Shown here: positions 6,766-43,277 of the stretch, in pieces
Layout of the letters: every line of letters starts with the position of its first letter
Position numbering within the stretch: position 1 is the stretch's first letter
From: Candidatus Enterousia sp.
GTDB lineage: Bacteria; Pseudomonadota; Alphaproteobacteria; Rs-D84
Length of the DNA: 64,000 nucleotides
Assembly (NCBI GenBank): GCA_045648945.1
Contig: JAZROX010000045.1
Span: forward strand, 26,362 to 90,361
Direction: 5' to 3'
Program-made: the position numbers and the translations under genes
Notes under the pieces: generated by a model
Databases searched by the model: none
What the model saw: the letters and a program-made list of their open reading frames with translations, nothing else
What the model was told of the DNA's origin: nothing

Positions 6766-7182
6766 TTAATGTTGGTGTATTTGTGCCGCGTATTTCGCAA
6801 TTTCGTTCTTTAAACTGGGGTCCGCAGACATGTTTGCAAATTCTGACGGGTCTATCCATTTATAATCGGTGTGTTCATTTGATAATTTCACCTTGCCACT
6901 CAAATATTTTGCCAACAAAGTAATCCCAACGGTTTGTCTTTCTTTGGCCGGTGTCATAAAAGACCATAAAGACCAAGGCCTGAACTCGATTTCAACCTTT
7001 AGACCGGTTTCTTCAAAAACTTCGCGCTTTATTCCGTCAACGATTTTTTCGCCATATTCGATTTTTCCCCCAGGAATATCCCACAGTTCTGCGAAAACAT
7101 CTTCTTCGTTGCTGCGTTTTAAAACCAGAATTTTTCCGTCTTTTTGTATAATTGCTTTCAGTGCAACCTTAAATTCCGCCAT
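6766..7182 (-). CDS. NUDIX hydrolase
   Basis: Nudix box GGKIEYGEKIVDGIKREVFEETGL. The ATG at 7182 (MAEFKV...) gives a typical 138-aa protein. The track ORF uses an upstream TTG. Confidence 0.8.
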   Translation of the reverse strand: MAEFKVALKAIIQKDGKILVLKRSNEEDVFAELWDIPGGKIEYGEKIVDGIKREVFEETGLKVEIEFRPWSLWSFMTPAKERQTVGITLLAKYLSGKVKLSNEHTDYKWIDPSEFANMSADPSLKNEIAKYAAQIHQH

Positions 7183-7260
7183 TTTGCTCTCCTGTGTGTT
7201 GTCCACATTGATATTACCGCATAAATTCACAAAATCAAGATTTTTATAGACAGTCCACCC

Positions 7261-7286
7261 CGAACCAGTGACATACGGATTAACAG
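7261..7286. repeat. 26-bp direct repeat (left copy) bounding the defense island: cgaaccagtgacatacggattaacag
   Basis: Identical 26-mer recurs at 15962-15987. Putative attL. Confidence 0.7.
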
Positions 7287-7299
7287 TTATAACCAATTG

Positions 7300-7830
7300 T
7301 TTTTACTGTATTTTTTAAGTCCAGAGTGAGTGCGGGCTACAGCCGTTTTTTCGTGTAATTTTTGTATAAGTAAAAATAGCGGTATAACAAATGTATAATT
7401 TTGCGATTGTATTTTGTTGGAACATAATGCAAATATATCCAATGTTTTCCGTGGGTTTTGGCGAATTTTCCGTAATTTTGTTTTAAATTTTTCCGTTTGA
7501 TTTTTATGCGATTTTTTGCCTTGTATGAATTTTGGATAAAACCCGAAAAATTGGGATGCTGTGCGATACATTTTTATACACTTGTATAACAACATAAAAA
7601 TTTCATGGTTGTATAAAATTTCGCCAAATTCGTATAACAGCACGTATAGCAACTGTATAATCCAAAAATATATATGCCATGTATAAATTCATGCAAAATT
7701 ACAAATATAACGAATGTATAATTTTGATTTTCTTATTTGCAAACTTTTTGCAAATTCAGTCCGTGACTTACGTTTTGAAAATAGTTGATTATCTGATTGA
7801 TTTTTGTTCAATGATTATATACTATCCTCA
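7300..7830. repeat. AT-rich non-coding region with ~10 iteron-like TGTATAA(C/T) motifs
   Basis: gtataa copies at about 7357, 7383, 7392, 7585, 7611, 7632, 7655, 7681 and 7723. The track ORF 7287-7652 is probably spurious. Confidence 0.5.
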
Positions 7831-7832
7831 TT

Positions 7833-8225
7833 ATGAAACATGTGTTATTTGGTTTTAAGATGTTTATGAAAAATGTGCTATTATTCGTATGGCGCATGGT
7901 TTTTAATTTGGCTTATTATATAGCCTTGTTATTTGTACCGTGTTTTAGTAGCAGATTAAATTTTTGGCATATGGTTTGGTTTGTGATAACGACTGTGTAT
8001 TTGTATAACCATTTGGGGCAGGCAATGGTTTTTGTTCCGTTTAATGGCTATGCGTTAATTTTTATTGTATGGGTTTTTATGATAATGAAACCATTTATAA
8101 AAACAGTGGGCTGCCAATTGGGAACTCTGGAATTAAATAAAGCGGATAGTTCTAAACAGGAATTTGAAGAAAAACTTAAACAAGCCAAAAAGAATTTGGC
8201 TCTCAAGAAGGGTGAGGGTAAATAA
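7833..8225 (+). CDS. Hypothetical small membrane protein (island cargo)
   Basis: 130 aa with 3-4 predicted hydrophobic helices and a Lys-rich C-terminal tail. AT-rich codon usage matches the rest of the island. Confidence 0.45.
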   Translation: MKHVLFGFKMFMKNVLLFVWRMVFNLAYYIALLFVPCFSSRLNFWHMVWFVITTVYLYNHLGQAMVFVPFNGYALIFIVWVFMIMKPFIKTVGCQLGTLELNKADSSKQEFEEKLKQAKKNLALKKGEGK

Positions 8226-8617
8226 TGTTAAAACATGTTTTTGATTTTGGCGACAATAAAAATTTGGCAAGGAACAAACTGTTTGAAGTGGTTTCTAAAG
8301 GTGTTGATTTGTTAGCTAGTGATTATATTAACGAAGAATTGCTGAATTCTTGGAAAAAATATGCAAAAACCGTTCTTGAATTAGTGGATGAAGCGTACGG
8401 AACGCATTATTCGTCAGATTTTTATATATCTGATACGATGCTTGGAAGTAGTTATTTTAGTGCATATTCTTTGCATTTACATGATGTATATAACCACATC
8501 ACTCCGGGATTAAACCCGATACACATCCCATATGGACAATCTCCACAAGATTTTAAAGGAAAATTACAAAGATCTCTGAATGAATTATTAAATATTTTGT
8601 CAAAATTACAGAAATGA
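8225..8617 (+). CDS. Hypothetical protein (island cargo)
   Basis: 130-aa ORF whose start overlaps the stop of the previous ORF (coupling). No recognisable motif. Confidence 0.4.
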   Translation: MLKHVFDFGDNKNLARNKLFEVVSKGVDLLASDYINEELLNSWKKYAKTVLELVDEAYGTHYSSDFYISDTMLGSSYFSAYSLHLHDVYNHITPGLNPIHIPYGQSPQDFKGKLQRSLNELLNILSKLQK

Positions 8618-8632
8618 TATGAAAGTGACATT

Positions 8633-9535
8633 GTGCACTTTTCTTTTATAATTAAAAACGAGCATATATTGTTAAACAAAGAATTTCCTTTACAACACCC
8701 ATTAAAAAACGATGATATAGATACCTTGATGAAAAAGTTAAGGATGATGGTTCGTACCATGGAACAATTTCATCCCCAAGCGACAACAGATAAAGGATTG
8801 ATGGGAATCCATAGTTTAACCGCTGCAATCATATCACTAGCCGCAGAAGCGTATGATGCTTTGCAAAAAAATAGAGTATTTGTAGCATCTTCAATTGCTT
8901 GTCAGATAATAGAACTTTACATACAGTTGTTGTGGTTAGATAAACATTTTTCAACACACGGTGCAGACTATATTGATTTTGGATATGTTGAGCAAATAGA
9001 TATGCTGCGAGTGCATCCAGACCGAAAAGATGAAGTTTTGGCAAAAATAAAGCAAAATAACTGTAAACGTTTTTTGTTAAATAAACCTAAGAATGACAAT
9101 TTGTTGGATAAGCGAAATTACAGACCACATTGGTATCCTGGGACATTAAAGACAATTTCTAATGAGTGTTTTAAAGATATGTGGGACCAAATCAAAAATG
9201 TGCCACAGTTAACTGATTATTATGGTGACATGGATGTAAATTATGAGAACTATCAAATATTTTGTGGATTTAAACATTTTTCGCCGTACATAGTTCGTAA
9301 ATGCTTTGCGACGATGAGCTCCTTTGCAGAGGATGCACCTGAAGATACTAAGTGGATCGCTAGTGTCATTGTCGTTCAGAGTTTGTGTGTTATTTGTGAA
9401 ATAATGGAACAGCATGGAGATCATATTTTCAATTCAAAACCAGTTGCGACAGATGGACTGATGCTATCGTCTATACAAAACTTGATAAACGGTGACAATG
9501 TATTGTATTCTGTGAATTATCAAATAATTATCTGA
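8633..9535 (+). CDS. Hypothetical protein (island cargo)
   Basis: 300-aa ORF with no recognisable motif. The true start may be an internal Met (~8738). Confidence 0.4.
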   Translation: MHFSFIIKNEHILLNKEFPLQHPLKNDDIDTLMKKLRMMVRTMEQFHPQATTDKGLMGIHSLTAAIISLAAEAYDALQKNRVFVASSIACQIIELYIQLLWLDKHFSTHGADYIDFGYVEQIDMLRVHPDRKDEVLAKIKQNNCKRFLLNKPKNDNLLDKRNYRPHWYPGTLKTISNECFKDMWDQIKNVPQLTDYYGDMDVNYENYQIFCGFKHFSPYIVRKCFATMSSFAEDAPEDTKWIASVIVVQSLCVICEIMEQHGDHIFNSKPVATDGLMLSSIQNLINGDNVLYSVNYQIII

Positions 9536-9581
9536 GAATTTTTGTATGAAAAGTATTTAATGAATACTGAATTGTATATTT

Positions 9582-11009
9582 TTAGTTATTAAAAGTTAAA
9601 AGCAGTGAATTGGTAAATATGGTCAGAGTTTTACATGCACGAGTTGCAGCAACATAGAAGTTCTTTTTGTCAAGCAAATGAGCGTCCAATATAATTACAT
9701 TATCAAACTCTAGGCCTTTTGTAAGTAGGGTGCTGCCTATACATTGTTTATGTAAATTTCGTCCTGTTCTGCGTATATGATTTTTATAATCGTACATCGC
9801 ATTACAAATAGAACAGTTAGATACTATAGCATTTTGTAAAACTTTTATTATTGTGTTTAACAATTCGGGTCTTTGATACTTTAGCTTCAATACATCTCGC
9901 ATAAGCTTTATAATGTAAAATAATGATGTTTTACTGATTTTATCGTCGAGCAAGTTATCAACATGTTGTTTTAATTGGTTTGCCTTCTCTTTTTCTTCGA
10001 TTTTTGTTTTCTTTTTCAATCCGTTATTATTGAACCACGTATCAATATCTGTTTTATTGAACAAAAATTGTTCACACGTTTCTTTAAAAAGAGAGAATTG
10101 ACTAGTAGATGTGAGTAACGTGTCTAAGCGTATAGCTAAATTATAAAAATCTGGATCGTCTATGGCTTCTAGCAACTGAAAATGCGATAATGCTAAATTG
10201 TTTCTCAACGATTGTCTTTGCCGTAACATGGAATTTGCAATTATCAAAGTGTTCGGAATTCGTGATAAACGTAAAACTTGGCGTCTATAATTAAGATCGT
10301 TATAAACTGTGCCAGTGACGTGTATAATGTTTATGGCCGGCCAATTTTGCGATAAATCAACATCATTGCCTTGTTCCAAATATTTTCTTAGTGTTTTTAA
10401 AGATTGTCCTAAAATAGGGTTGTTGCCGTTGAGCTCCCATCTCCATGGCTGTTCCAGTGAGCCCGATGCATCAGAAAAATCGTTTAGTTCGCTATCAAAA
10501 TCGACCAAAGGTTCACCAAAATTGAAAATTCCTTGCATTGGGTCCCCCAATAAATGCATAGGTATCGCGTCCTTTAATTGCATAAGCATATTATGCTGAT
10601 TTGCAGTGCAATCTTGATATTCATCAATAAATATCCCTGAGTATGTTTTTTTTATTATATTACGTATCGGCTGCTTAGAAAACAATTCGGCCACCTTAGG
10701 TATGATGTTTTTATAGTATCCATTGGTGTTTTGTTCTGGTACAGATGCAGTAGCAAAGCCCAACACATATTTTTGGGCATATCCACATATCGTTTCTATA
10801 TTATATGCAGAACTGGGGATGCCACATTTTAACAATTTTTCCCTTATTGATGCGATTCCTGCATGAGTATGTGTTAAAATAAGTTGTTTGCCTAAGTTTC
10901 TGTCGTTAGCAAATTTTACGCAATCGGCGATAAAATGGGTTTTGCCATATCCAGCAGGCGCTATAATTTTTGTTTTTATTCCCATTACAAATTGTTCTAT
11001 ATTTACCAT
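9582..11009 (-). CDS. gajB: Gabija GajB, UvrD-like helicase
   Basis: Walker A APAGYGKTHF, UvrD motif II FIDEYQDC and motif VI VAATRA. 475 aa. Immediately downstream of, and coupled to, the OLD-family ATPase gene. Confidence 0.8.
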   Translation of the reverse strand: MVNIEQFVMGIKTKIIAPAGYGKTHFIADCVKFANDRNLGKQLILTHTHAGIASIREKLLKCGIPSSAYNIETICGYAQKYVLGFATASVPEQNTNGYYKNIIPKVAELFSKQPIRNIIKKTYSGIFIDEYQDCTANQHNMLMQLKDAIPMHLLGDPMQGIFNFGEPLVDFDSELNDFSDASGSLEQPWRWELNGNNPILGQSLKTLRKYLEQGNDVDLSQNWPAINIIHVTGTVYNDLNYRRQVLRLSRIPNTLIIANSMLRQRQSLRNNLALSHFQLLEAIDDPDFYNLAIRLDTLLTSTSQFSLFKETCEQFLFNKTDIDTWFNNNGLKKKTKIEEKEKANQLKQHVDNLLDDKISKTSLFYIIKLMRDVLKLKYQRPELLNTIIKVLQNAIVSNCSICNAMYDYKNHIRRTGRNLHKQCIGSTLLTKGLEFDNVIILDAHLLDKKNFYVAATRACKTLTIFTNSLLLTFNN

Positions 11010-12641
11010 TTACTCACCGATCCATTCAGATAAAGCAGTCCATGTTCTTTTTGTATAACAATCAGGTATTGTATCCCATTTGTCAAATATAGTTTTCCCT
11101 AAAGCTTCTCCCTTGTCGATTCTTTTATACCATTCGTTTCCTTTGTCAATGGCATAATTAGCAATTTTGATTCTATCTTCTGGGCAATCCTGCAACCCTG
11201 TTACAGACGGATGTGATAATAAGAGTTCTTCTATTATTGACCATGGTAAATCCTTAAAAATTTGATGCTCTATATCATTACCATTCTCGCAATCAAAAAT
11301 TTTGACGTCTAGGACTTGCAAGTCTGCTTTCTTATCATTTATATCATTTTTATCAGAATCAATAAAAACGCATGTATCAAAACCCAATTCTTTGAGTTTT
11401 TTTGCTCGTTCTATGGTGGTGCTTCCTTCGCCTAGAATATAGAAACAGTCATTTAAGGACATGGAATTTTTATTATTTTTTTGTCGCCATTTGTCCAATG
11501 CTCTACAAATACCTATCTCTGTTTTCCCTTCGCATATGATGATTTTTTTACAAAAAAAACCTTCCGGATTTGCCCTAACGACAGCTTGCCAATTGTCTTT
11601 TTCAGGAATGTTTGTAATAGAGACAAACTTGTTGTCATCGGACTTTTTTACAAGATACAAATCACTTGAAGCAAGTTCCACAATAGCATCACGTGAATGA
11701 GTAGTTAGAAAAATTTGCCCATTGTTTTCATCTTTTAATATTGATACAATTTGTTTAATTCTATCTGGTTCTAATCCTTGTTCTATTTCATCTATTAACA
11801 CTATCCCCCCTTGTTTGGTCAATGCTAATTGGATAGCTATAGAAAAAATGCGTTTTGAACCTTTACCTCTTAAACGTAAAGGTATATTGTTATAATCGTT
11901 TAAACAAATTTTAGTGTCCTTTATAGCAATATCCCTAAAATCGATGGATGTTTTTAAGCCTTCTGCGTTTAATCCGAGTTTGGTAGAAGTTTGGCTTATT
12001 TCATTGGTTGTTTCTAATGTTTGTGGAAAATCAATATTATCAATTTCAGATTTCACTGCTCTCAACCTATCGATAATTATGTTAGAATTTTCTGGTGCTC
12101 CAGAAATCTCTTTAAATAATTGATACAGTGGAGAACCTTTATTCCACGAAAAGTGATTGTCAACATAATCTGATATAAAAAAACAATTTAATTTTGCTCT
12201 ATCTGTTGCACTTATTGCTTTAGGTTCTTGGCGATTTGTAAAGATTTCCCATTTCGGTTCTAGGGTTTTATCTACGGTCAGCCTTATTGTATAAACATCT
12301 TCTAAATTATCATCGTCAGTTAAATCATCTATTACTTCTTTTGTGCTTCTATTATACTGTCTCTTATACAATCCAAACTTTTCTTCTGTTTGTAATACGT
12401 CTGGTATTTCAGAAAGAGTAACTTCGATTTGTATTTGTTGGTTTGTATCACCATCAAAAAAATCTGTGTCGTAAAACTGGAGAGTGTAATTAGGGCATAA
12501 AGCATAATAAATTGAATTTAAAACCGTTGTTTTCCCGCAATCATTCCTACCAATAAGACAAACAAAGTTTTTATCAAAGGTTTCAGATAATGATTTTATT
12601 GTACGAAAGTTTTTTATATCTAATTTTACTATCTTGCTCAA
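11010..12641 (-). CDS. gajA: Gabija GajA, OLD-family ABC ATPase fused to TOPRIM nuclease
   Basis: Walker A GRNDCGKTT, Walker B VLIDEIEQGLEP, and TOPRIM motifs IIICEGKTE and FIDSDKND in the C-terminal third. 543 aa. Confidence 0.8.
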   Translation of the reverse strand: MSKIVKLDIKNFRTIKSLSETFDKNFVCLIGRNDCGKTTVLNSIYYALCPNYTLQFYDTDFFDGDTNQQIQIEVTLSEIPDVLQTEEKFGLYKRQYNRSTKEVIDDLTDDDNLEDVYTIRLTVDKTLEPKWEIFTNRQEPKAISATDRAKLNCFFISDYVDNHFSWNKGSPLYQLFKEISGAPENSNIIIDRLRAVKSEIDNIDFPQTLETTNEISQTSTKLGLNAEGLKTSIDFRDIAIKDTKICLNDYNNIPLRLRGKGSKRIFSIAIQLALTKQGGIVLIDEIEQGLEPDRIKQIVSILKDENNGQIFLTTHSRDAIVELASSDLYLVKKSDDNKFVSITNIPEKDNWQAVVRANPEGFFCKKIIICEGKTEIGICRALDKWRQKNNKNSMSLNDCFYILGEGSTTIERAKKLKELGFDTCVFIDSDKNDINDKKADLQVLDVKIFDCENGNDIEHQIFKDLPWSIIEELLLSHPSVTGLQDCPEDRIKIANYAIDKGNEWYKRIDKGEALGKTIFDKWDTIPDCYTKRTWTALSEWIGE

Positions 12642-12709
12642 TTTTTATTTCTCCTAAAAGTTTTATATGCATGTGATTATGGCGAATGGTTCTTGTTGTA
12701 TTATAGTTT

Positions 12710-13606
12710 TTATTTCAATAATTCTTCCAACACACCTTTTTGCACCATGGCAATGTTCAAGATGTAATCTGTGGTGTTAAATGTGTCGTGCAATGGGCGT
12801 TGGGCAGTTTGCCAACCTAGACCATCAGTAATCCAAATGAATTGGTGACCGTCTTTAGACCATTGTTGATAAATTTTTGCATATTCGCCTGCTGTGGATT
12901 TTAGTTTTGAACCGCCACCACCGTAAAAGTTGGTTTCGATCAGATATAATTTATGTGGTGTGTTTATAGCAAAATCTATTCGTTTGGAAGAGTTTGTAAC
13001 GGTTATATGCTTACCCCATTCACTGTAAATTTTGTCTGCGGTAGCTTGGGCAATGTAGTCATATCCGTTTCTTTTACAAATATCTTTGATAAATAATTCT
13101 GTCAATGTTTCCATTGATGTGCCACTACGATTTTTGCGACCATTTGAATCAAGCCCGACTTCTACACCAAGGAAATAATCTGGAACGGATTTTATTGTTC
13201 GGTCAGAAATCAAATCTAATAAGCCAGATTCTTTCATGAATTTTGCAGCGTCTTTTGCGGACATTGGTTTTGTAAAATCAAAACTAGTTGTAGCGAAAGA
13301 GTTTGCGTGATCGATCAAAGAAATTTTTTTATGGCGTTCTGCGAGTAATGCAGGAATAATCTTAATTATATTTGGATATTCGCTTAAAAGTTGCTCTGCT
13401 GCCTTTTCAATATCTGGTTTGCCAATAAGGGTGTTAAGCAAATTCAATGATACTTCCGCTTCATGGTAATTTTTACATACCTTTTGCCAGTTCACAAAAT
13501 AATCCCAAGATTTGATAGTTTCTTTCAAATTATCAATCAAATACGCAAATACTTCGTCTTCGTTTTTACAACCTAGTAATTTATCAAATATTTGGGAATA
13601 TTTCAT
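12710..13606 (-). CDS. DpnII/MboI-family type II restriction endonuclease (predicted GATC-specific)
   Basis: 298-aa ORF terminal in a Dam-MTase / second-MTase / REase cassette, the same order as dpnM-dpnA-dpnB. Family assignment rests on context and size. Confidence 0.55.
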   Translation of the reverse strand: MKYSQIFDKLLGCKNEDEVFAYLIDNLKETIKSWDYFVNWQKVCKNYHEAEVSLNLLNTLIGKPDIEKAAEQLLSEYPNIIKIIPALLAERHKKISLIDHANSFATTSFDFTKPMSAKDAAKFMKESGLLDLISDRTIKSVPDYFLGVEVGLDSNGRKNRSGTSMETLTELFIKDICKRNGYDYIAQATADKIYSEWGKHITVTNSSKRIDFAINTPHKLYLIETNFYGGGGSKLKSTAGEYAKIYQQWSKDGHQFIWITDGLGWQTAQRPLHDTFNTTDYILNIAMVQKGVLEELLK

Positions 13607-14388
13607 TTTTTATCCTTTTTTTCAGATATATCATATAACCTTTTTTCAGCCAGTTCAACAAATTGTGACTCTTGGTCTATGCCAACAAACAAACGTCCAT
13701 GTTTTATTGCAGCAACACCTGTTGTGCCACTGCCCATAAAAGGATCCAGAATCAAATCGCCAGGATTTGTAGATGCCAAAATAATACGTTCCAATAATTC
13801 TACTGGTTTTTGAGTCGGGTGTTTGCCAAATTTCTTTTCTTCTTTAGTGGGTGTTCCAATAGCCCAAACACTTCGCATTTGGCAACCTGGCTTTTTAATA
13901 AAGTCTTTTGGGAAATCGCCATTCTTCATAGCTTCATAATTAAAAGTATGTTTTGCTTTTTTGTTTTTGCGCGCCCAAAGTAGGGTTTCGTGACTTGCGG
14001 TAAAGTACCGGCAAGACATATTCGGACTGGCATTTGGCTTAAACCAAGTTATGTCGTTTAAAATATGGAACCCAAGTAATTGCATAGCAAAGCCGCACGA
14101 ATATATGCTGTGGTATGTGCCGCTGACCCATAATGTGCCATTGGGTTTCAAAACACGATGACAGGCACAGAGCCATTTTTTATGAAATTCAAAATCATCA
14201 CTAAGACCGTGTGATTTATCCCAATCGCCTTTATTCACAGATACAACACAACCATTTTGACATGTGATACCACCGTTGGAAAGCATGTACGGTGGGTCTG
14301 CAAATATCATATCAAATGTATTTTCCGGAAGTTCAAGTAACTTTTCAAGGCAGTCTGCACAATAAAGACGATACGATTTCTTAGTCAT
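13603..14388 (-). CDS. DNA N6-adenine/N4-cytosine methyltransferase (DpnA-like second methylase)
   Basis: FADPPY catalytic motif near the N-terminus and a SAM-binding DPFMGSGTT motif near the C-terminus (beta-class order). Confidence 0.75.
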   Translation of the reverse strand: MTKKSYRLYCADCLEKLLELPENTFDMIFADPPYMLSNGGITCQNGCVVSVNKGDWDKSHGLSDDFEFHKKWLCACHRVLKPNGTLWVSGTYHSIYSCGFAMQLLGFHILNDITWFKPNASPNMSCRYFTASHETLLWARKNKKAKHTFNYEAMKNGDFPKDFIKKPGCQMRSVWAIGTPTKEEKKFGKHPTQKPVELLERIILASTNPGDLILDPFMGSGTTGVAAIKHGRLFVGIDQESQFVELAEKRLYDISEKKDKK

Positions 14389-15313
14389 AGTTAGTTATAA
14401 GTAATTCACGAATTGCATCACGACCATCTGCCTTGGAATTTATAAGACGTTTAGCCAAAATACGGTTAATTTTATAATCTTTGTACAAATCATCGAAGAA
14501 TGGATCATCAATGTAATTGGTTGGATCTGAATTGCTCAACATCTGCAAAGCCCCCATTTGATGACATTTATCAAAAACCTGTTTCAAACGTTCCTGTTCT
14601 GCATCGTCAAAATCGCCAACGGCATAAGAATTGAAAGATGATGTTTCACGAATTGGACGATATGGAGGATCATAATAAATGAACGTATCGGCTTTTACAT
14701 AATCTGGTGTAGCCCCAAAGTCTGCCTGCATAATAGTAGCAATTTGCAAAGCTTCAGACACGTTGCGTAAGTTTTCTTCATCCAAAATACGTGGATTTGT
14801 ATATTTGCCCATTGGAACATTGAATTTGTTTTTGCTGTTTACACGGAACAACCCATTAAAGCATGTCCGGTTCAAGAATATCGTTAGGGCAGCGCGGCGA
14901 ACAAAACTTGTGCGGTATACATTGGCATCAACATTTTTATCACAGTCGTTATATTCATCGCGTCTGGCATAATAATATGCCTTTGTGTCATCTGTATGTC
15001 TGTATTCGGTTTGAATTTTAGTTAATTCAACAATCAAACTTTCCACATCGCGTTTTATGACGTTGTAAAGAATCACCAATTCTGGGTTGATATCGAATAA
15101 AAACGCTTCCCGGATTTGATATCTATTATATATGTCAAAGAATACGGCACCGCCACCGACAAAGGGTTCTATATACCGTTTGATGCCCCCCATCTTTAGT
15201 TTCAAAGGAAGTTTTTGTTCAATTTGTTCCAACAATTGCCCTTTACCGCCGGCCCACTTCAAAACAGGGCGACATTCGGTATAATCTGGCAATCTGGCTG
15301 GTATCGCTATCAA
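14381..15313 (-). CDS. Dam-type DNA adenine methyltransferase (DpnM-like, GATC)
   Basis: N-terminal LKWAGGKGQLL motif typical of Dam/DpnM (D12 class), plus DPPY. Confidence 0.8.
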   Translation of the reverse strand: MIAIPARLPDYTECRPVLKWAGGKGQLLEQIEQKLPLKLKMGGIKRYIEPFVGGGAVFFDIYNRYQIREAFLFDINPELVILYNVIKRDVESLIVELTKIQTEYRHTDDTKAYYYARRDEYNDCDKNVDANVYRTSFVRRAALTIFLNRTCFNGLFRVNSKNKFNVPMGKYTNPRILDEENLRNVSEALQIATIMQADFGATPDYVKADTFIYYDPPYRPIRETSSFNSYAVGDFDDAEQERLKQVFDKCHQMGALQMLSNSDPTNYIDDPFFDDLYKDYKINRILAKRLINSKADGRDAIRELLITNYD

Positions 15314-15361
15314 AAATTATCCTTTCCTTATTGCTATATTAGAAGAAAATAGCAGATAAAA

Positions 15362-15625
15362 TCAAGGTGTTTTATAACGTTTTTGTGGTTTGTTTTTCCA
15401 CATGGCTGCCATTTGGAATAATTTGTGCTGGATACGGCGGAGCAACCATGCTTGCCGGCAGGTTAGGTTGCCGTTGTTTGTTCTGCGTATGGCGTTCTCT
15501 AATTCGTGCAGTGATCGGCATGCTGCGAAATAAAGCATAATAAAATCGGTTTTGTTACTGGGTTCAATTTCCCGAAAATGTTTGTACTTCATAGACAATC
15601 CTTTTAAGGTTGTCGCATTCATCAA
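15362..15625 (-). CDS. Small basic hypothetical protein; possible regulator or recombination directionality factor of the island
   Basis: 87 aa, Arg/Lys-rich. A perfect palindrome at 15706-15738 lies upstream of its start. Confidence 0.3.
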   Translation of the reverse strand: MMNATTLKGLSMKYKHFREIEPSNKTDFIMLYFAACRSLHELENAIRRTNNGNLTCRQAWLLRRIQHKLFQMAAMWKNKPQKRYKTP

Positions 15626-15705
15626 TATCTTTCGGAGAAAGTCCAGTCATTTGTTCGTTTCCTCGCAAATAAACATTTTTCGCGCTGATATAACAAATGT
15701 ATAAC

Positions 15706-15738
15706 GGTGACATACTTCCGGACGTTCCGTATGTCACC
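15706..15738. promoter_or_regulatory. Perfect inverted repeat GGTGACATAC-N13-GTATGTCACC (operator or recombinase-binding candidate)
   Basis: 10-bp arms. The GTGACATAC half-site also occurs inside the 26-bp island-boundary repeat. Flanked by ATAACAAATGTATAA repeats (15690-15704, 15811-15825, and 7384-7398 at the other island end). Confidence 0.5.
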
Positions 15739-15942
15739 CATTTTTGGAAGTTATGAAAGCCTTGTAAATCTTGGTATAGCGGGTTTGCCAGTAATTGAAA
15801 AAAATCCCGTATAACAAATGTATAATTTTTTGATTATATTTGGCTGTATTCTGGTATTTTTAGGTCGTATTTTTTCTGAAAATGTAAAGTGGTTTTTGGG
15901 ATAAAAAACGCCACAAACACGCGGGTTTGTGGCACTAGATCG

Positions 15943-15987
15943 TGGCTCGGGCAACTGGACTCGAACCAGTGACATACGGATTAACAG
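15943..15987 (-). pseudogene. 3' tRNA fragment (T-arm, acceptor 3' strand, CCA; anticodon loop CTGTTAA resembling tRNA-Asn GUU) forming the right island boundary
   Basis: Reverse complement reads CTGTTAATCCGTATGTCACTGGTTCGAGTCCAGTTGCCCGAGCCA: perfect T stem-loop ACTGG-TTCGAGT-CCAGT, 7-nt acceptor strand, discriminator, CCA. No complementary 5' half is present. Contains the second copy of the 26-bp direct repeat (15962-15987). Confidence 0.55.
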
Positions 15988-16239
15988 GGGGGGATAGAGG
16001 TGGGCTTGTAGGACGGCGTGTGAGGTGCAGAAAAACGTCGTTTTTTTGCGCGCGGATATGTTACAACTGTGAGGTGTTTTTGGATTTGTGGCCCAGTGTA
16101 GCAAAAAAATTGCACTATCGTGTAGCCACATGTGCCTAAATGATGCAAAAGGAAGGATATGCCGGCCGTATTCGCGGAATATTTTTTCGCTTGTGGAAAA
16201 GTATCATAACTTGTACTATCCAATTGAAAGGAGTCAAAA

Positions 16240-17265
16240 ATGAAATGGGCGATTATATTCGCAATCATCGTACTTGGAATCGCTGGATACTTTATGTTTT
16301 CCGGTAATAAATGGGATAAAACATTTGATCAAAATCCAAATGTTATAACCCAGAAAGTGCATTTTACAAATCGATATGGTGTTGATTTGGTTGGCGATTT
16401 ATATATGCCAAAAAACATAGATAAAAATCAAAAATATGCCGCTATCGCTGTATCCGGTCCATTTGGTGCGGTCAAAGAACAAGTCTCGGGTCGATATGCC
16501 CAAGAAATGGCAAATCGTGGTTTTGTGACTTTGGCCTTTGACCCGTCTTTTACCGGCGAAAGCGGTGGCAAGATTCGGGATGTCGCGTCGCCCGATATAA
16601 ATACCGAAGATTTTTCTGCGGCGGTGGATTACCTGGTGACTTTGCCATTTATCGATGAAAATAAAATTGGCATTATCGGTATTTGTGGTTTTGGTGGTTT
16701 TGCATTAAATGCGAATGCGATGGATACACGTATTCGTGCAACCGTCACATCAACAATGTATGATATGACACGTGTTTCGGCGCATGATTATAATGATACA
16801 AAAAGTGCCGAGCAATTATATGCCGAACGTGTTCAAATGAATAACCAAAGAACCGCGGACGCAAAAAGTGGCAAAATCGCAAAATCCGCCCCATTACCAG
16901 CCCCAGAAACTTTGACCGATGATACGCCGCAATTTGTGCGCGATTATGTTGCATTTTATAAAACGCCACTTGGCTATCATAAACGTTCGGTTGGTTCACA
17001 ACGTGGTTGGAATGCAACATCTGGGTTGTCTTTGATAACTATGCCGATATTGGCCTATGCAGACACAATCAAAAACCCGGTGTTAATGATACACGGCGAA
17101 AACGCGCACAGCCGTTATTTCAGCGAAGATGCGTTCAAAAAATTGACCGGCGATAACAAAGAATTATTGATTATTCCGGGGGCAAATCATACAGACCTGT
17201 ATTATAAAATGGATGTGATACCGTTTGATAAAATGGAACAATTCTTCAAAACAAATTTGAAATAA
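16240..17265 (+). CDS. Alpha/beta-hydrolase fold protein (dienelactone-hydrolase-like, Cys nucleophile GICGFGG)
   Basis: N-terminal TM/signal. GxCxG nucleophile-elbow-like motif. 341 aa. Confidence 0.5.
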   Translation: MKWAIIFAIIVLGIAGYFMFSGNKWDKTFDQNPNVITQKVHFTNRYGVDLVGDLYMPKNIDKNQKYAAIAVSGPFGAVKEQVSGRYAQEMANRGFVTLAFDPSFTGESGGKIRDVASPDINTEDFSAAVDYLVTLPFIDENKIGIIGICGFGGFALNANAMDTRIRATVTSTMYDMTRVSAHDYNDTKSAEQLYAERVQMNNQRTADAKSGKIAKSAPLPAPETLTDDTPQFVRDYVAFYKTPLGYHKRSVGSQRGWNATSGLSLITMPILAYADTIKNPVLMIHGENAHSRYFSEDAFKKLTGDNKELLIIPGANHTDLYYKMDVIPFDKMEQFFKTNLK

Positions 17266-17277
17266 AAAGGATAACAC

Positions 17278-17835
17278 ATGAAAAAATTACTATCTGTTTT
17301 AATGATGGTTTGCGCGGTATTCACAAATGCGAAAGCAGAGGAGGCGAATATGACGAACGATAAAATCTTGGTTGCTTATTTCAGTGCCACCGGAAACACA
17401 AAATCTGTAGCTGAAAAGTTGGCAGCCGCGATAAATGCCGATTTGTTCGAAATTATGCCTGAACAACCGTATACAAGCGATGACTTGAATTGGCAAAACG
17501 ACCAAAGTCGTTCTTCTATTGAAATGGGTGACAGAAGTTCAAGACCAGCAATCGCATCAAAAATCAAAGATATATCACAATATAAAATTGTATTTGTTGG
17601 ATCACCAATTTGGTGGGGACGTGAACCGTCAATTATGGATACGTTTATTGAAAGTTATGAATTTTCGGACAAAACGGTTATCCCGTTTGTTACATCCGGC
17701 AGCAGTGGTATCGGCGATTATGGGGCAAACCTGCAATCGTTAGCCCCAGGAGCAAAAGTCCTGACCGGCAAACGTTTTACAACCGATGTTACCGCGGAAG
17801 AATTAAAAGCCTGGGCTACTGCGCAAATGCAATGA
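17278..17835 (+). CDS. Flavodoxin-like protein with N-terminal signal peptide
   Basis: VAYFSATGNTKSVAEKLA flavodoxin FMN-binding signature. IVFVGSPIWWG motif. Confidence 0.7.
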   Translation: MKKLLSVLMMVCAVFTNAKAEEANMTNDKILVAYFSATGNTKSVAEKLAAAINADLFEIMPEQPYTSDDLNWQNDQSRSSIEMGDRSSRPAIASKIKDISQYKIVFVGSPIWWGREPSIMDTFIESYEFSDKTVIPFVTSGSSGIGDYGANLQSLAPGAKVLTGKRFTTDVTAEELKAWATAQMQ

Positions 17836-18176
17836 GAAAGGAAATCATAAAATTCATAGATAAAAAATATAACGCCGCCCCAGAATATCTGTGGAGGCGT
17901 TATCCAACATATTGCGTCTTTCGGCATGCGGGCAATAAAAGATGGTTTGTGCTGGTGGGCACCGTTCCACGCAGCGTCTTGAAACTGCCGGGCGATGGCG
18001 AGATTGATTTTATCAATTTAAAAACCGGCGATGCGGAATTCTTTCGTGGCGTCAGGGGTATTTTACCGGCATATCACATGAACAAAAACCATTGGATTAC
18101 GGTATTGCTGGATGGAACATTGCCGATAAAAAACATTCAGCATTTGATTGAAACATCATATGAATTAACATTGTGA
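17832..18176 (+). CDS. MmcQ/YjbR-family protein
   Basis: 114 aa. The pattern YLWRRYPTYCVFRHAGNKRWFVLV is characteristic of the YjbR family. Start overlaps the previous stop. Confidence 0.55.
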   Translation: MRKEIIKFIDKKYNAAPEYLWRRYPTYCVFRHAGNKRWFVLVGTVPRSVLKLPGDGEIDFINLKTGDAEFFRGVRGILPAYHMNKNHWITVLLDGTLPIKNIQHLIETSYELTL

Positions 18177-22013: not shown

Positions 22014-22460
22014 GTGAACAGTATAACACAAATTCAAAAAATGCTTGAAAGATCCGGTTTGCGGGTCAATGGCATTGACGATGGTTTTGTGTATTTAGAA
22101 GACCCGTCTTGTATTTTGCGTGGATTTGAAACGTTTCTGGGGTACGCGTGGGATATTTTATTATTGATAACCGCATTTTTAATCATGGGTTGGGGCATAT
22201 CAATGATACGTGGCGCAAAAAACGATATCATAAACAATATGAAAAATTTGATTTTAATATTTAGTATTTTAACCGCATTGCCACTTATATTGAACGTTAT
22301 TTATGGCGGTGATTTAATTGGTGCGGGTTGCAAAACATTGAAAGTATCCGTTTCCGAAGTCAACGAAATCTTGGCGACCAAGGTTCAAACAAAATCTTTG
22401 GATGCATCGCTTTACGAAGATATTGATATATATGATTCCGGTCCAAATTCAGGTATTTGA
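22014..22460 (+). CDS. Hypothetical membrane protein
   Basis: 148 aa with two hydrophobic helices. GTG start directly after the previous stop. Confidence 0.4.
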   Translation: MNSITQIQKMLERSGLRVNGIDDGFVYLEDPSCILRGFETFLGYAWDILLLITAFLIMGWGISMIRGAKNDIINNMKNLILIFSILTALPLILNVIYGGDLIGAGCKTLKVSVSEVNEILATKVQTKSLDASLYEDIDIYDSGPNSGI

Positions 22461-23159
22461 ATTATACACAATATTGGCGCACCCCGGAATCCCTGAAAGA
22501 CTGTACAGCATATCGCCCGATACAACATAATGATCAATCAGTTTTATACCAACCGCGTCCAGCATTGCTCGTAATTGTTTTGTGACCTCTATATCCTGCG
22601 TTGAAAAAGATGTCTCACGGCGTGGATGATTATGCATCAACACGATACCTTTGGCATCAATCGAGATAGCGTGTTTTACAATTTCTACATTATATAAAGA
22701 CGATTCGTTATATGTTCCTTTGCTGTGCATTTCGTCTTCCAATAACCGACCAATTTCGTCCAGGTATAATACATGAACCTCTTCGACATCTTTGTGACCA
22801 ATCTTTAATTTGCAATAATTCGCCAATTGTTCCCGGTTGTGTAATATCGGCGTGTCACGGAATTTGCATTCGTATCCATCAAGCAAGATTTTTTGAACAA
22901 CCTTGATAAAAATTGCAGTGTTGCGTCCCATGCCACGAACCGTGCACAAATCATCAATTGATGCGCATAGTATCGGATACATGCCGCCAAATTTATTATA
23001 CAGCATTCGTGCCAAAGGTCGAACATCACGACGTGGAATCGCATAACTTAGCAATAATTCCAGCGTTTCATATTTTGCCAATTTATCATCAATGAAATTT
23101 TGACGTAACCTTTCACGATGACCGTTGCGCAAATAAGAATCTTCTGTTTTGTCCGACAT
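22449..23159 (-). CDS. radC: RadC-like JAB/MPN domain protein
   Basis: JAMM-type motif HNHPRRETSFSTQD and an N-terminal helix-hairpin-helix region. 236 aa. Confidence 0.8.
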   Translation of the reverse strand: MSDKTEDSYLRNGHRERLRQNFIDDKLAKYETLELLLSYAIPRRDVRPLARMLYNKFGGMYPILCASIDDLCTVRGMGRNTAIFIKVVQKILLDGYECKFRDTPILHNREQLANYCKLKIGHKDVEEVHVLYLDEIGRLLEDEMHSKGTYNESSLYNVEIVKHAISIDAKGIVLMHNHPRRETSFSTQDIEVTKQLRAMLDAVGIKLIDHYVVSGDMLYSLSGIPGCANIVYNSNT

Positions 23160-33201: not shown

Positions 33202-33295
33202 GGATGGTTGGCAGAGCGGTTGAATGCATCCGACTTGAAATCGGACAAGGTATGAAATAAGACCTTCGGGGGTTCAAATCCCTCACCATCCGCCA
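33202..33295 (+). tRNA. tRNA-Ser (anticodon UGA) with long variable arm
   Basis: Acceptor GGATGGT/ACCATCC, anticodon stem CCGA/TCGG with loop CTTGAAA, long extra arm, T-loop GGTTCAAATCC, discriminator G and encoded CCA. Confidence 0.85.
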
Positions 33296-33455
33296 GTAAA
33301 ATCGGGCATCCCGTGGTAATTCCACGGGATGTTCTTTTTCGCCCCGTTTCCGGCAGTTTTTATACACGACATTACCAGTATATATCATTGTTTTTACCAA
33401 CTATGCCATATTTTACCATATTTATATACCTTACCCAAAAACGCGATGCCACTTT
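33290..33455. repeat. Direct repeat copy 1: tRNA-Ser 3' end (last 6 nt), its terminator hairpin and ~130 bp downstream
   Basis: ccgccagtaaaatcgggcatcccgtggtaattccacgggatgttcttttt...attaccagtatatatcat recurs at 38922-39090 with ~90% identity over the first 100 bp, degenerating beyond. The terminator hairpin is at 33308-33339. Confidence 0.75.
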
Positions 33456-33570
33456 TGAGTGCTTTTTCTATTAAAACCAAACAAAAAAACAGTTTCTTGT
33501 TATGAAATTAGTTGACAAAAGTTTTTGATGTGTTATTTTATCGGTGATATAAATTCAAGGCGTTTATATT

Positions 33571-34692
33571 ATGTTGATTGATTATAAAAATTATGTTAGC
33601 TCTTTAATTCGTTTTTTTGCACAAAAAAAATGGGAATATTCCTTTTTAAATGGAGATGTTATTTTTATAAAAAACTATACTGATACTGTCACTAGAAAAA
33701 TTAAACCTGAATATTTATTGAACGACTCGCTGTTTTATTCAAAAGTTGTTGAAAGCTTTTCTGCTCTGAATATACCCGTCAAAATAATAAATTCAATAGA
33801 AAATAAAAATTCTGATACAGATTTTATAATTGCTGGATTACAATTAGCTAATAACTCTTTAAAGAAAGATATCGTGAATCACGAATCTTTTTACTCATTG
33901 CAACCAGTTGTGCGTTTAACAAAAACCTCCATGGGAGGACAAAACAATAATATGCTAACATCGTTTATAAACTTATGTTCGGTTGATATAAACACTTCCT
34001 TAGATGAATATATGCAACGTGTGGATCAATGGATTTCTGTTTTTTCGAACCTTTCTTTACATACAAGTGGCTTTAAATTGATAACCAAAAAAATCCAAAA
34101 TAATAGGTTTTATGATGGGGTACCTTTTTATAATGGATTAAAGTTAAAATTCGTGTATCAAAACGTTGATATAGCCGTTGCTAATTTGTTTACCGTTAAT
34201 TGTAAACAAGGTTCAATTCTGGTTTCTGATTTCGGTTCTAGCTATGAACGTGTGTTAGGATGTATCAATGGGAATGATAACTTTTTTAAACCCATATATC
34301 CTAGTTTTCAGGTTTTATATGGCAACTATGTTATAAACGATAGGTTGCGAACGGCAGTTCTGATGTGTATGTCAGGTATAACTCCTAGTGCACATGGCAA
34401 TGGACAAAAATTAAGGAATATAATAAAAGAGGCTACAACAGTACCAGAAATTAGTAGACTAAAAGAAGTCATAACTTATTATTATATGTATTATTCAAAG
34501 TTTATAAATTCTAAAATAGAGTTGCCGTATGTATCCAGTATGATAGAAAAAGAGATTGAACAACAGCAGAAAAAGATTATTTCTGGTAAATATGATAAAA
34601 AAAATGTTACTAAATCAATAGATAATGTTTGTAGCGAAATCATTTTGAAGCAAGTCTTGCAAAGACAATCTATGTTAACCAAATTTAAATAA
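33571..34692 (+). CDS. Hypothetical protein (AT-rich island gene 1)
   Basis: 373-aa ORF with island-type low-GC codon usage. No confident motif. Confidence 0.45.
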   Translation: MLIDYKNYVSSLIRFFAQKKWEYSFLNGDVIFIKNYTDTVTRKIKPEYLLNDSLFYSKVVESFSALNIPVKIINSIENKNSDTDFIIAGLQLANNSLKKDIVNHESFYSLQPVVRLTKTSMGGQNNNMLTSFINLCSVDINTSLDEYMQRVDQWISVFSNLSLHTSGFKLITKKIQNNRFYDGVPFYNGLKLKFVYQNVDIAVANLFTVNCKQGSILVSDFGSSYERVLGCINGNDNFFKPIYPSFQVLYGNYVINDRLRTAVLMCMSGITPSAHGNGQKLRNIIKEATTVPEISRLKEVITYYYMYYSKFINSKIELPYVSSMIEKEIEQQQKKIISGKYDKKNVTKSIDNVCSEIILKQVLQRQSMLTKFK

Positions 34693-34706
34693 TAAAAAGT
34701 TACATT

Positions 34707-36827: not shown

Positions 36828-36869
36828 ATGAGTATTATGTAGCTTGGTTAAGTAATAATCTAAGATAAG

Positions 36870-37586
36870 GTGTGTCCGATGAATGTATTATTGAACGGTG
36901 GTGGTTGCGCCGAAAAAACAAAAGAAATTTATACTTTTTTAAATAAAATCATAAACAATTCAAAACCTATATTGTGTATTCCCCTTGCCCGGGATAGAGA
37001 TGATAGTGGATATGAAAATTCTAAGGTTTGGTTGCAGAATGAATTAAATGACATTGATTATTCTGGTTTGGTTATGGCAGATTCATCCGATTATATATCA
37101 AAGATGAATTTAAATGATTTTGGATTGATTTACATTAGTGGGGGGAATACGTACAAATTATTGAAAGAATTAAAGGATACAGAAGCATTTAATAAAATAA
37201 GAGCCTATTTTCTTTCTGGTGGTATTATTTATGGATCTAGTGCCGGGGCGGCAATATTTGGCGCTTCTTTACGTTCCATAGCATATGCCGATAAAAACGA
37301 TGTTAAATTGCAAAATATTCAAGGATATGATTTGTTTTCCGGAATATCAATAGCCGCACACTATACTAATAAAAATGAAGAAAAAACTCAAATTGCAACA
37401 GAATACCTGATACAATTATCAAAAACTGAACCAGTTGTAGCTTTACCAGAAGAAGATACTATATATATACACGATGGTCTTGTTACCGTGTTTGGTTCTC
37501 GCGATTATTACATATTCAGGAATGGTGTTCGAAAAGCATTTACTACTGGCCAAACCATGCCAAAAGAAGTATTTTTGAATCTGTAA
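36870..37586 (+). CDS. Peptidase S51 family (dipeptidase E / cyanophycinase-like)
   Basis: ISGGNTYKL and GSSAGAAIFG nucleophile-Ser motifs typical of S51. 238 aa. Confidence 0.6.
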   Translation: MCPMNVLLNGGGCAEKTKEIYTFLNKIINNSKPILCIPLARDRDDSGYENSKVWLQNELNDIDYSGLVMADSSDYISKMNLNDFGLIYISGGNTYKLLKELKDTEAFNKIRAYFLSGGIIYGSSAGAAIFGASLRSIAYADKNDVKLQNIQGYDLFSGISIAAHYTNKNEEKTQIATEYLIQLSKTEPVVALPEEDTIYIHDGLVTVFGSRDYYIFRNGVRKAFTTGQTMPKEVFLNL

Positions 37587-37640
37587 ACATTACTGAATTG
37601 TTAAAATCAATTGATGTTGACAAATGTAAATTGCAGTTCT

Positions 37641-38525
37641 CTATTTTGTTGCCATTTTTTGGTTGCAGACTAATTGTCCGCATGCGCCTGCAATATCTTG
37701 TCCTTTGCTAATTCTAATAATTGTTTGTACACCTACGCTTTCCAATCTTTGTTTAAATATATTTGCTTTATCCTCTTTTGCACGAGACATTGAGATTGTT
37801 TGCGTTTCGTTATACAATAATATTTGAACTTTAAAATATTTAGGGTCAATCAATTTTATTAGGTCTGCTAAATGCTTTTCAGAATCGTTCACATTGTTTA
37901 TTAACATATAACTTAATGTCACTCTTTTATTGGTCTGAATTACATATTCTTTGCAAGCCCCCAACAGTGTGCTTATATCATATTTTTTATTAACAGGCAT
38001 CAGTTGTGAACGTTGGTTGTCGTAAGGAGAATGCAACGAAACAAAAAATTTGATGTTTTTTAATTCATTTTGTAGCGTGGCAAGCTCTGCTATTTTGTCT
38101 ACTATACCTACCGATGATATAGGAATTGTTTCCAAATTTGGGTCGTATTGGCTTATTCGTTTGCAAAAATGTTTCAAATTGATAAAATTATCTAGCGGTT
38201 CCCCCATTCCCATTACCACGGCACTATATTTAATATTTTCTGATTCTATATTTCTGTATATTAAATCAGACCTGATAAGTCTGATTTCATCCAGCATTTC
38301 ATTATGAGATAAGTTAGCATAAAATCCATTATGACCAGTTGCACAAAACAAGCAGTTCATTTTACAACCCGCTTGTGAAGATATACAAATATGGTATCTA
38401 TCGTACGGGATCCCATTTCTTTGGTTTATTCTGTAGTAAACAGCCTCGCACAAATTACCGAAATTTGTGCGAAATATGTACTTTATGCTTCCGTCTTGAG
38501 ATCTCAAAGAATTCAGAATTTTCAT
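37641..38525 (-). CDS. RlmN/Cfr-family radical SAM RNA methyltransferase homolog lacking the N-terminal accessory domain
   Basis: HICISSQAGCKMNCLFCATG, MGMGEPLDNF and C-terminal DIAGACGQL retain both mechanistic Cys of RlmN/Cfr. Only 294 aa (about 70 residues shorter at the N-terminus). Confidence 0.65.
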   Translation of the reverse strand: MKILNSLRSQDGSIKYIFRTNFGNLCEAVYYRINQRNGIPYDRYHICISSQAGCKMNCLFCATGHNGFYANLSHNEMLDEIRLIRSDLIYRNIESENIKYSAVVMGMGEPLDNFINLKHFCKRISQYDPNLETIPISSVGIVDKIAELATLQNELKNIKFFVSLHSPYDNQRSQLMPVNKKYDISTLLGACKEYVIQTNKRVTLSYMLINNVNDSEKHLADLIKLIDPKYFKVQILLYNETQTISMSRAKEDKANIFKQRLESVGVQTIIRISKGQDIAGACGQLVCNQKMATK

Positions 38526-39090: not shown

Positions 39091-39145
39091 CTTGAATGGC
39101 CGCGTTTTTCTGTTAATATCGTAACCGATAAACAAAGGATTTTAC

Positions 39146-40785: not shown

Positions 40786-40823
40786 CCTTTTTATGACTTG
40801 TAATTATCAGATTGACATATTTT

Positions 40824-43250: not shown

Positions 43251-43277
43251 AAAGACAATAACCAAAAGGTATAAAAA

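Follow-up and report, generated by a model that had tools for sequence, protein, structure and literature searches.

An island of 8.7 kb, located at positions 7261-15987 of a 64-kb window of DNA from Candidatus Enterousia sp. (the window being the whole stretch analysed, at its full length), is probably a non-autonomous unit resembling a cis-mobilisable element (CIME), situated in a decayed tandem array whose members recombine at the anticodon loop of tRNA-Asn(GUU). This reading is based on the anatomy of the island, the homology of its ends to those of other islands, the recurrent classes of junctions and the absence of an integrase. The contigs used for comparison, designated by L numbers, are short metagenome assemblies from species other than that of the window. 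The features at the ends of the island are the following, lengths being given in nucleotides (nt):

7261-7286, minus strand: distal core (attR-like), CTGTTAA plus 19 nt of tRNA-Asn (TCCGTATGTCACTGGTTCG), then non-tRNA sequence; recognised as an exact repeat.
7287-7832, no strand: distal arm (P arm), non-coding, with directly repeated GTATAAC-type heptamers; homology to L077 and L073.
15593-15906, no strand: proximal arm (P' arm), tRNA-proximal and non-coding; homology to L408, L099, L314 and L073.
15936-15907, minus strand: intrinsic terminator that immediately follows the tRNA 3' end (CCA); a 12-bp stem, then a T run.
15943-15987, minus strand: the 3' 45 nt of tRNA-Asn(GUU), with the proximal core and the right 26-mer (15962-15987); identity to L002, L073 and L075.
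15988 to about 16215 (inner end approximate), no strand: the 'X arm', a relic distal arm of a neighbouring element and not part of the island; recognised by homology.

Concerning the direct repeats, the 26-mer CGAACCAGTGACATACGGATTAACAG has just two copies in the 64 kb, at 7261-7286 and 15962-15987, even when three mismatches are allowed, and matches to it were completely absent from 100 shuffles. The reverse complement of 15943-15987, CTGTTAATCCGTATGTCACTGGTTCGAGTCCAGTTGCCCGAGCCA, represents the final 45 nt of tRNA-Asn(GUU), beginning with the anticodon loop CTGTTAA and ending in CCA, and is identical to the corresponding segment of the intact genes in L002, L073 and L075. The 5' half of the gene is missing from the whole 64 kb at up to three mismatches. 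ARAGORN detected no tRNA-Asn in the window—the sole tRNA being a tRNA-Ser at 33202-33295—and no tRNA match was obtained from Rfam within 7000-16400 at E ≤ 1, so that neither program places an intact tRNA-Asn over a boundary of the island. Both the exact repeats and the solitary 3' half, described in the original prediction from the letters of the sequence, are thus borne out. The island has no full tRNA gene at either end, just the 3' 45 nt; the full gene is present in the family members L073 and L075. The left fragment has the same orientation as the right one and is identical to it over 26 nt; it is internal, reaching from the anticodon loop to the T loop, and the lack of the tRNA 3' end suggests erosion. 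The left 26-mer would be the eroded remnant of a displaced tRNA 3' half. In relatives, the corresponding place, with an element arm on one side and a NUDIX gene on the other, contains shorter core relics, and equivalent hairpins follow the CCA. A search of viral contigs with the 26-mer gave 71 loci, mostly unrelated bacteria with the same conserved tRNA segment, L099 being the only informative one.

The homology of the ends extends beyond the cores. The distal arm shares 92.9% nucleotide identity (7287-7738) with L077 817-1268 and 74% (window 7270-7794) with L073 9127-9638, the match abutting the core in both cases; it should be noted that the NUDIX gene beside it is only 86.9% identical to that of L077, compared with the 92.9% of the arm itself. 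The proximal arm (15674-15918) exhibits 73% identity to L408 3075-3312, where the arm homologue follows the 3' half of tRNA-Asn and the cargo beyond it consists of EcoRV, a D12 methyltransferase and SocA. Partial matches to this arm occur in L099, L314 and L073, at the same position beside the 3' half. The two arms also share the 16-mer TATAACAAATGTATAA, found at 7383, 7645 and 7706 in the distal arm and at 15689 and 15810 in the proximal one, i.e. five copies in the window—all at the two ends of the island—against 0.16 expected; many more GTATAA(C/T/A) heptamers are present in 7574-7722. The heptamer repeats would be arm-type integrase sites. The proximal arm contains, in addition, the inverted repeat GGTGACATAC-N13-GTATGTCACC at 15708-15740, the right arm of which matches the core-type sequence TCCGTATGTCAC. 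This palindrome is made of the sequence standing directly 3' of the loop in the tRNA (a 12-mer match), and similar palindromes exist in the corresponding regions of relatives. As for pattern searches, the 16-mer TTATACATTTGTTATA proved too A+T-rich for specificity in metagenome contigs, only L314 being relevant among the returned loci; in viral contigs L099 alone was relevant, and a search with a longer pattern from the arm gave no match.

Islands whose non-coding ends are homologous but whose defence cargo differs are located directly downstream either of an intact tRNA-Asn or of elements with an excisionase gene (xis) and a tyrosine-integrase gene. The former arrangement is seen in L073 and L075, in which an intact tRNA-Asn is followed by a defence-type island of 7.4-8.7 kb, a partial tRNA repeat starting from CTGTTAA and then NUDIX; in L073 the tRNA-Asn is at 904-979 and the distal arm of the next island is homologous to that of the window. 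Neither of these two islands gave an integrase match, and an integrase is missing in all three islands with the GTATAAC-type arm, i.e. those of the window, L073 and the partial L077.

A census of junctions, taken from the window and 25 related contigs, comprises 28 cases. An element arm is joined to the full 3' half in 10 of them and to a partial core in another 10, the 5' half is joined to non-tRNA sequence in five, and the tRNA is intact in the remaining three. The only invariant across all 28 is the 7-nt anticodon loop CTGTTAA, with the sequence on each side varying independently, which makes the loop the likely crossover site; beyond it, 10-19 nt of tRNA sequence remain in the partial cores, the 19 nt of the window being the longest. 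The crossover may thus be placed within CTGTTAA, and the pattern of junctions would be the expected outcome of reciprocal exchange in a 7-bp overlap. Among islands residing in tRNA genes (tDNAs), those with an anticodon-centred attP form a common class, with 2083 cases, and the Islander database lists 159 islands with 5' fragments (PMC4383910), the latter being a precedent for elements that carry a 5' half.

Integrase-bearing siblings in tandem layouts occur in L099 and L405-L411. The rumen contig L099 contains, in this order, a tyrosine integrase of 420 amino acids (aa), an AlpA-like open reading frame (ORF), an arm, CTGTTAA, the full 3' half of tRNA-Asn and island-type sequence; the 3' half stands there without a 5' half, and the island-type sequence beyond it is 90% identical to window 15429-15656. 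The domains of this integrase are Phage_integrase (catalytic; 4.1e-21), Phage_int_M (central) and Arm-DNA-bind_3. The AlpA-like ORF can be read as a putative Xis because of its sequence, its 38% tblastn match to the xis of L025 and the Pfam HTH_17 domain of its equivalent in the element with the integrase P0274. L025 itself has a core, an arm with GTGTAGC repeats (five exact and one GTGTATC), xis and a 431-aa integrase, 53% identical to that of L099. The family of tRNA-Asn integrases covers at least 158 clusters. P0274 was found in seven contexts, in which the xis and integrase genes (xis-int) with their arm abut CTGTTAA and the full 3' half, a different island lying beyond each; the same junction of arm, CTGTTAA and full 3' half is present in L314. 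No conjugation module was seen in any sibling examined.

The island stands out from its surroundings by its composition, with a G+C content of 0.32-0.35 across 7-14 kb compared with approximately 0.44 in the flanks. Domain scans of its ORFs revealed no recombinase—no integrase and no Xis—and no relaxase, conjugation, primase/replicase or packaging-related domain, and tblastn with the integrase and Xis of the family gave zero matches across the window. The view of the original prediction that this is a foreign, integrase-less integrative island bounded by direct repeats derived from tRNA-Asn is thus supported by composition, repeats and recombinase searches alike, and its wording 'decayed or satellite integrative element' may fairly be applied to it. 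The cargo is as follows:

7833-8225, plus strand: 130-aa ORF, hydrophobic in its N-terminal half; without a match in Pfam, PADLOC, PHROGs or NCBIfam.
8225-8617, plus strand: 130-aa ORF; likewise no match in Pfam, PADLOC, PHROGs or NCBIfam.
8633-9535, plus strand: DUF5677-domain protein of 300 aa; Pfam PF18928 at 1.9e-6, 28.5 bits versus a cut-off of 27.1.
9582-11009, minus strand: GajB, the UvrD-like helicase of Gabija; PADLOC 2.3e-117 over the full length, Pfam UvrD-helicase and AAA_19.
11010-12641, minus strand: GajA, the ATPase with an OLD-like TOPRIM nuclease of Gabija; PADLOC 2.9e-152, Pfam AAA_21, AAA_15 and OLD-like_TOPRIM.
12710-13606, minus strand: DpnII-family restriction endonuclease; Pfam DpnII 1.2e-96, profile positions 2-278 of 278.
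13603-14388, minus strand: N6_N4-class DNA methyltransferase (DpnA-like); Pfam N6_N4_Mtase 1.4e-63, PADLOC MTase_II 5.2e-98.
14381-15313, minus strand: D12-class N6-adenine methyltransferase (DpnM/Dam-like); Pfam MethyltransfD12 4.7e-59.
15362-15592, minus strand: conserved 76-aa ORF (MKYKHFREIEP...), first gene of the restriction-modification (R-M) operon; no family match.

Pfam and PADLOC thus confirm the cargo as first proposed—gajA-gajB, a triad of Dam-like, DpnA-like and DpnII-like genes and three unclassified genes—to which the 76-aa ORF and the terminator can now be added. The genes for GajA and GajB abut at 11009/11010, and the adjacency of GajA (ATPase and TOPRIM) to GajB (UvrD-like helicase) corresponds to the Gabija layout. 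The gene set of the DpnII-type R-M system is complete in one minus-strand operon, in which the genes overlap or abut. In Streptococcus pneumoniae the DpnII cassette has the order dpnM-dpnA-dpnB; the order of D12 methyltransferase, N6_N4 methyltransferase and DpnII endonuclease in the window is the same, with the extra 76-aa ORF at its head. The cargo would act as ordinary defence, i.e. Gabija together with predicted GATC methylation and restriction. With regard to the remaining genes, the DUF5677 protein exhibits 78% amino acid identity (tblastx) to L073 5766-6572, within the island of that contig; it has no relative among solved structures and no further family match. The two 130-aa ORFs are not paralogues (BLASTP of 8225-8617 against its neighbour, E=4.9), and the first of them, at 7833-8225, sits in the slot used by xis in the sibling elements. 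An ORF at 7287-7652 on the minus strand, with no family match, was taken as spurious.

The 76-aa ORF has more than 200 homologue clusters at 66-96% identity, from metagenome-assembled genomes (MAGs) of Alphaproteobacteria. It was considered as a marker of the island backbone and ruled out as such: in L397-L404 it precedes the pair of D12 and N6_N4 methyltransferases too, in a stretch with serine-recombinase, terminase and ParB-like genes, which assigns it to the R-M module, where it may be considered a candidate regulator. In these contigs (e.g. L397 8366-13985) PDDEXK_11 and ApeA_NTD1 proteins occupy the place where DpnII would stand, and the stretch in L397 adjoins an NrdD/NrdG block syntenic with window 26.7-32.9 kb. 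A short upstream ORF of about 28 codons (MTGLSPKDIDECDNLKRIVYEVQTFSGN), at window 15593-15676 on the minus strand, overlaps the start of the 76-aa ORF and is conserved in L099 7870-7960.

The place where the 5' half of the tRNA would be expected is occupied by the X arm, which abuts CTGTTAA directly. It shows identities of 74% to L074 13890-14045, 86% to L078 7339-7424 and 66% to L025 12309-12455, and retains two GTGTAGC units, at 16096 and 16120. Its homologue in L025 lies between the core and xis plus integrase; in the window the arm leads to a hydrolase gene. Being homologous to a conserved arm that leads to xis-int in L025, the X arm represents the relic of a neighbouring element that has since decayed. 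The junction of a foreign arm, CTGTTAA and the full 3' half is found in nine other contigs, in eight of which xis-int stands directly beside the arm. There is no further core anywhere in the window, so that the array is now detached from a tRNA gene.

The following course of events may be proposed for the CIME-like unit. Read along the tRNA, i.e. on the minus strand of the window, it consists of the core CTGTTAA, the rest of the 3' half, the terminator and the arm with the GTATAAC-type repeats and the core-like palindrome, then the 76-aa ORF, DpnM, DpnA, DpnII, GajA and GajB, the DUF5677 protein and two 130-aa ORFs on the opposite strand, a 0.5-kb arm with the same repeats and, finally, the second core. 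A tyrosine integrase of the sibling family, with its Arm-DNA-binding, central and catalytic domains, would exchange strands within the 7-bp loop with the help of an AlpA-like Xis. As long as the island lay beside the gene, its own 3' half would restore the tRNA, as in L073. A later element of the same guild would have integrated into the regenerated loop, pushing the 3' half of the island away from the 5' half, and would then have lost its xis-int and body, leaving just the arm at 15988 to about 16215; the left 26-mer would be the rest of a 3' half displaced earlier. Any further movement would need an integrase acting in trans, the route of mobilisation we infer, or homologous exchange via the conserved arms. 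An excised circle would carry the junction of CAATTGGTTATAA with CTGTTAATCCGTATGTCACTGGTTCGAGTCC, and an empty site would read CCTCTATCCCCCC followed by CTGTTAATCCGTATGTCACTGGTTCGGGGTGGACTG.

Several points weigh against this proposal. No integrase is found beside a GTATAAC-type arm in any contig examined; those of the siblings adjoin arms with other repeats—GTGTAGC, GTGTAGAC, TTATTTAAG and TGTAAGATT—and a cognate integrase for the GTATAAC arm is therefore hypothetical. Neither an excised circle nor an empty site nor an identical second copy of the island was found, which leaves present-day mobility unproven. The genome's functional tRNA-Asn is not seen in the 64-kb window, and the array may have become detached from a tRNA gene by any of three candidate routes: deletion, inversion and integration of the island into a relic site such as that of L082 (X arm, core, NUDIX). 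Moreover, the distal cores are eroded or truncated, and a tRNA-proximal island would on excision leave the tRNA broken behind it; such islands may therefore often be fixed, with their cargo turned over by other routes, among which homologous exchange via the conserved arms is a serious partial alternative.

Taken by itself, that alternative would see the repeats and arms as fossils in a hotspot, in which defence cargo is swapped by homologous recombination via conserved flanks (the arms, NUDIX and the tRNA region). It would account for the wholly different cargo between conserved arms, the erosion of the distal cores to 10-26 nt and the missing integrase in the three islands with this arm type, and the presence of the 76-aa ORF with the two-methyltransferase module in L397-L404 likewise indicates that modules are shuffled independently of the island. 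On the other hand, CTGTTAA and TCCGTATGTC are retained at all unit boundaries in spite of the divergence of the sequence around them, reciprocal exchange at a single 7-bp site would be expected to give just the four classes of junction observed, active-looking siblings with integrases reside in the same arrays, and L079 and L082 (see below) suggest a circular or tandem form of a unit without an integrase. As the complete explanation it is rather unlikely, even if the strongest of the rivals; it should be pointed out that the hotspot and the site-specific exchange are not mutually exclusive.

A more speculative variant, which we hold to be doubtful, is that islands with the GTATAAC arm are dedicated non-autonomous multi-gene defence cassettes that have always been recombinase-less and borrow the tRNA-Asn integrases of unrelated siblings. 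Since several types of integrase and arm use one 7-bp core, the units would be shuffled among the positions of the array, somewhat like a large-scale integron; the heptamers would bind a putative arm-binding domain or directionality factor encoded by the helper, and the island of the window could have entered a relic site (X arm, core, NUDIX) and not the tRNA gene.

The original prediction had the island itself insert into the local tRNA-Asn and split or displace it; the 5' half would then have been lost and the island's own integrase would have decayed in place. The 3' half without a 5' half, the lack of an integrase and the A+T-rich DNA of island size between direct repeats agree with this. 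It is nevertheless improbable, and this part of the prediction is not supported: the family member in L073 regenerates an intact tRNA-Asn, the right 3' half being the island's own terminator-bearing end; the position of the 5' half is filled by the conserved arm of another element and not by arbitrary DNA; the same junction recurs in the nine other contigs mentioned above, eight of them with complete xis-int beside the arm; and tblastn gave no sign that the island contains an integrase pseudogene. A chance repeat, or a misassembly in which unrelated contigs were joined at a shared tRNA-derived k-mer, is hardly credible: the window probably comes from an uncultured organism and five of its proteins have no exact match on record, but the 26-mer never appeared in the shuffles, both types of junction occur independently in several assemblies from different samples and assemblers, and 26 nt would lie far below the k-mer sizes used for joining contigs. 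A split tRNA assembled in trans is unsupported as well, both kinds of half being found as ordinary attachment (att) junctions.

Solitary 5' halves were observed in their own right in three contigs—L062 (6353-6394), L080 (381-418) and L076 (965-1002 and 4442-4479)—in which the tRNA-Asn promoter and 5' half stop exactly after CTGTTAA and pass into non-tRNA sequence, the 3' half being absent from the contig. The two copies in L076 are 3.5 kb apart and flank an integrase-less unit, and in L395 xis-int lies just upstream of the promoter and 5' half. All of these look like elements carrying the 5' part of the tRNA gene. A resident integrase beside the tRNA promoter, i.e. an integron-like platform, was considered and rejected: L395 has one, and none is present in about 900 nt upstream in L073; L075, with only about 250 nt upstream of the promoter on the contig, is uninformative in this respect.

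The chromosomal surroundings of the island are the following:

Left flank: aminoacyl-tRNA synthetase, two acyltransferases and NUDIX.
Right flank: hydrolase, flavodoxin, YjbR, ParC, RadC, Map and HolA.

On the left side, the closest homologues of the window's NUDIX protein (93-94% amino acid identity) originate from a sister species, in which a conserved block that extends from radical-SAM genes as far as ASCH comes after NUDIX and the DNA upstream of NUDIX differs between contigs. The contigs with one identical NUDIX protein (P0077) exhibit at least five different upstream arrangements, that of L073 and L075 among them. In L079, at the contig ends, and in L082 1-560, this NUDIX-to-ASCH block of about 7 kb is bounded by cores, and its end arm leads back into its own start (X arm, core, 330-nt segment, NUDIX), an arrangement suggestive of an integrase-less unit in circular or tandem form.

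On the right side, the hydrolase has its best match (88%) in a MAG labelled Candidatus Enterousia, the clade being one of uncultured gut and rumen Alphaproteobacteria. The hydrolase-flavodoxin pair occurs in unrelated contexts across genome contigs, with about 60% identity in Firmicutes and Bacteroidota; its neighbourhood is not conserved and thus of no use for finding an empty site, so the NUDIX of the left flank was used instead. The alpha/beta-hydrolase gene (window 16240-18176) exhibits approximately 55-63% identity to counterparts from Firmicutes, Bacteroidota and other gut taxa (L001-L061); flavodoxin and/or YjbR travel with it in L001 and L023-L025, the wider context being different, which suggests a horizontal spread of the gene. 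Exact-sequence look-ups of the hydrolase, NUDIX, flavodoxin, DpnII and GajB gave no record, the null for NUDIX being weak as the query was one codon too long. Further downstream, the G+C content drops locally to 0.38 at a RadC-like gene with a JAB domain (window 22449-23159), which stands between ParC and Map/HolA. A second variable region, window 33202-52100, begins directly after the tRNA-Ser(tga), with a G+C content of 0.30-0.35 up to about 41 kb; among its products are a radical-SAM/His-phosphatase fusion, two S51 peptidases and a DUF2806 protein. The tRNA-Ser is not repeated there, a scan of ten of the larger ORFs of the region (33-52 kb) revealed no recombinase domain, and the family integrase gave zero tblastn matches in it. 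In the syntenic relative L063 the tRNA-Ser is followed by Fic, two glycosyltransferases, NUDIX and flavodoxin before a common GAPDH block.

Concerning the significance of these results, they make visible how anti-phage systems may be stored and exchanged in uncultured gut and rumen Alphaproteobacteria with small genomes: one tRNA-Asn locus gathers units in tandem whose ends are conserved and whose defence cargo is interchangeable, an integrase being absent from many of them. The lone tRNA half seen here would be the normal mark of a neighbour's integration and not of gene loss. To judge from the filters of Islander (PMC4383910), such units would escape island finders that call for both an integrase and a full tDNA. 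What is known of tRNA-targeting integrases, Gabija and DpnII systems is left unchanged.

Among known systems, CIMEs and their tandem accretion were first described for the ICESt1-related elements of Streptococcus thermophilus (PMC5704250). The island resembles them in having attL/attR-type cores (7261-7286 and 15962-15987), each beside a conserved arm; in lacking genes for integration and transfer, whether lost or never present; and in standing in tandem with elements of the same site specificity, so that movement would be expected only via the integrase of a neighbour or helper. It differs in its target, the anticodon loop of an alphaproteobacterial tRNA-Asn versus the 3' end of the Firmicute fda, as well as in the arm repeats proper to its family and the siblings without a conjugation module; an origin by decay of an integrative and conjugative or an integrative and mobilisable element is only hypothetical here. 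With the tDNA islands of Islander (PMC4383910, and the sublocation analysis of Williams 2002 cited there) it shares the gene-restoring tDNA fragment at one end, an apparently displaced fragment in the same orientation at the other, the likely crossover centred on the anticodon loop and the tandem arrays; the differences are that it has no integrase, that there is no full tDNA at either end and that the distal fragment is internal, and the Islander filters would presumably reject it on all three counts.

The tycheposons of Prochlorococcus (bioRxiv 10.1101/2020.12.28.424599) are likewise tRNA-proximal islands in which successive integrations push older elements outwards, with scattered partial tRNAs, degenerate elements and cargo-carrying forms; they are defined, however, by their own tyrosine recombinase clades and replication modules, none of which occur in the island of the window, and belong to another phylum and habitat. 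The ssrA-specific islands of Dehalococcoides (PMC3146451) are reported to be similarly site-specific at a single-copy small-RNA gene and to share a mobilisation mechanism across strains, the target gene and host being different. From phage satellites, i.e. phage-inducible chromosomal islands and P4-like elements, the island is distinguished by having no integrase, replication or packaging-related domains of its own, and from integron arrays by the lack of an IntI-type integrase in the window, by multi-gene units of 3.5-9 kb and by boundaries that are tRNA-derived cores and not attC sites. The element type is thus one already known, and its new member in this poorly studied clade is a tidy example of it and not a surprise.

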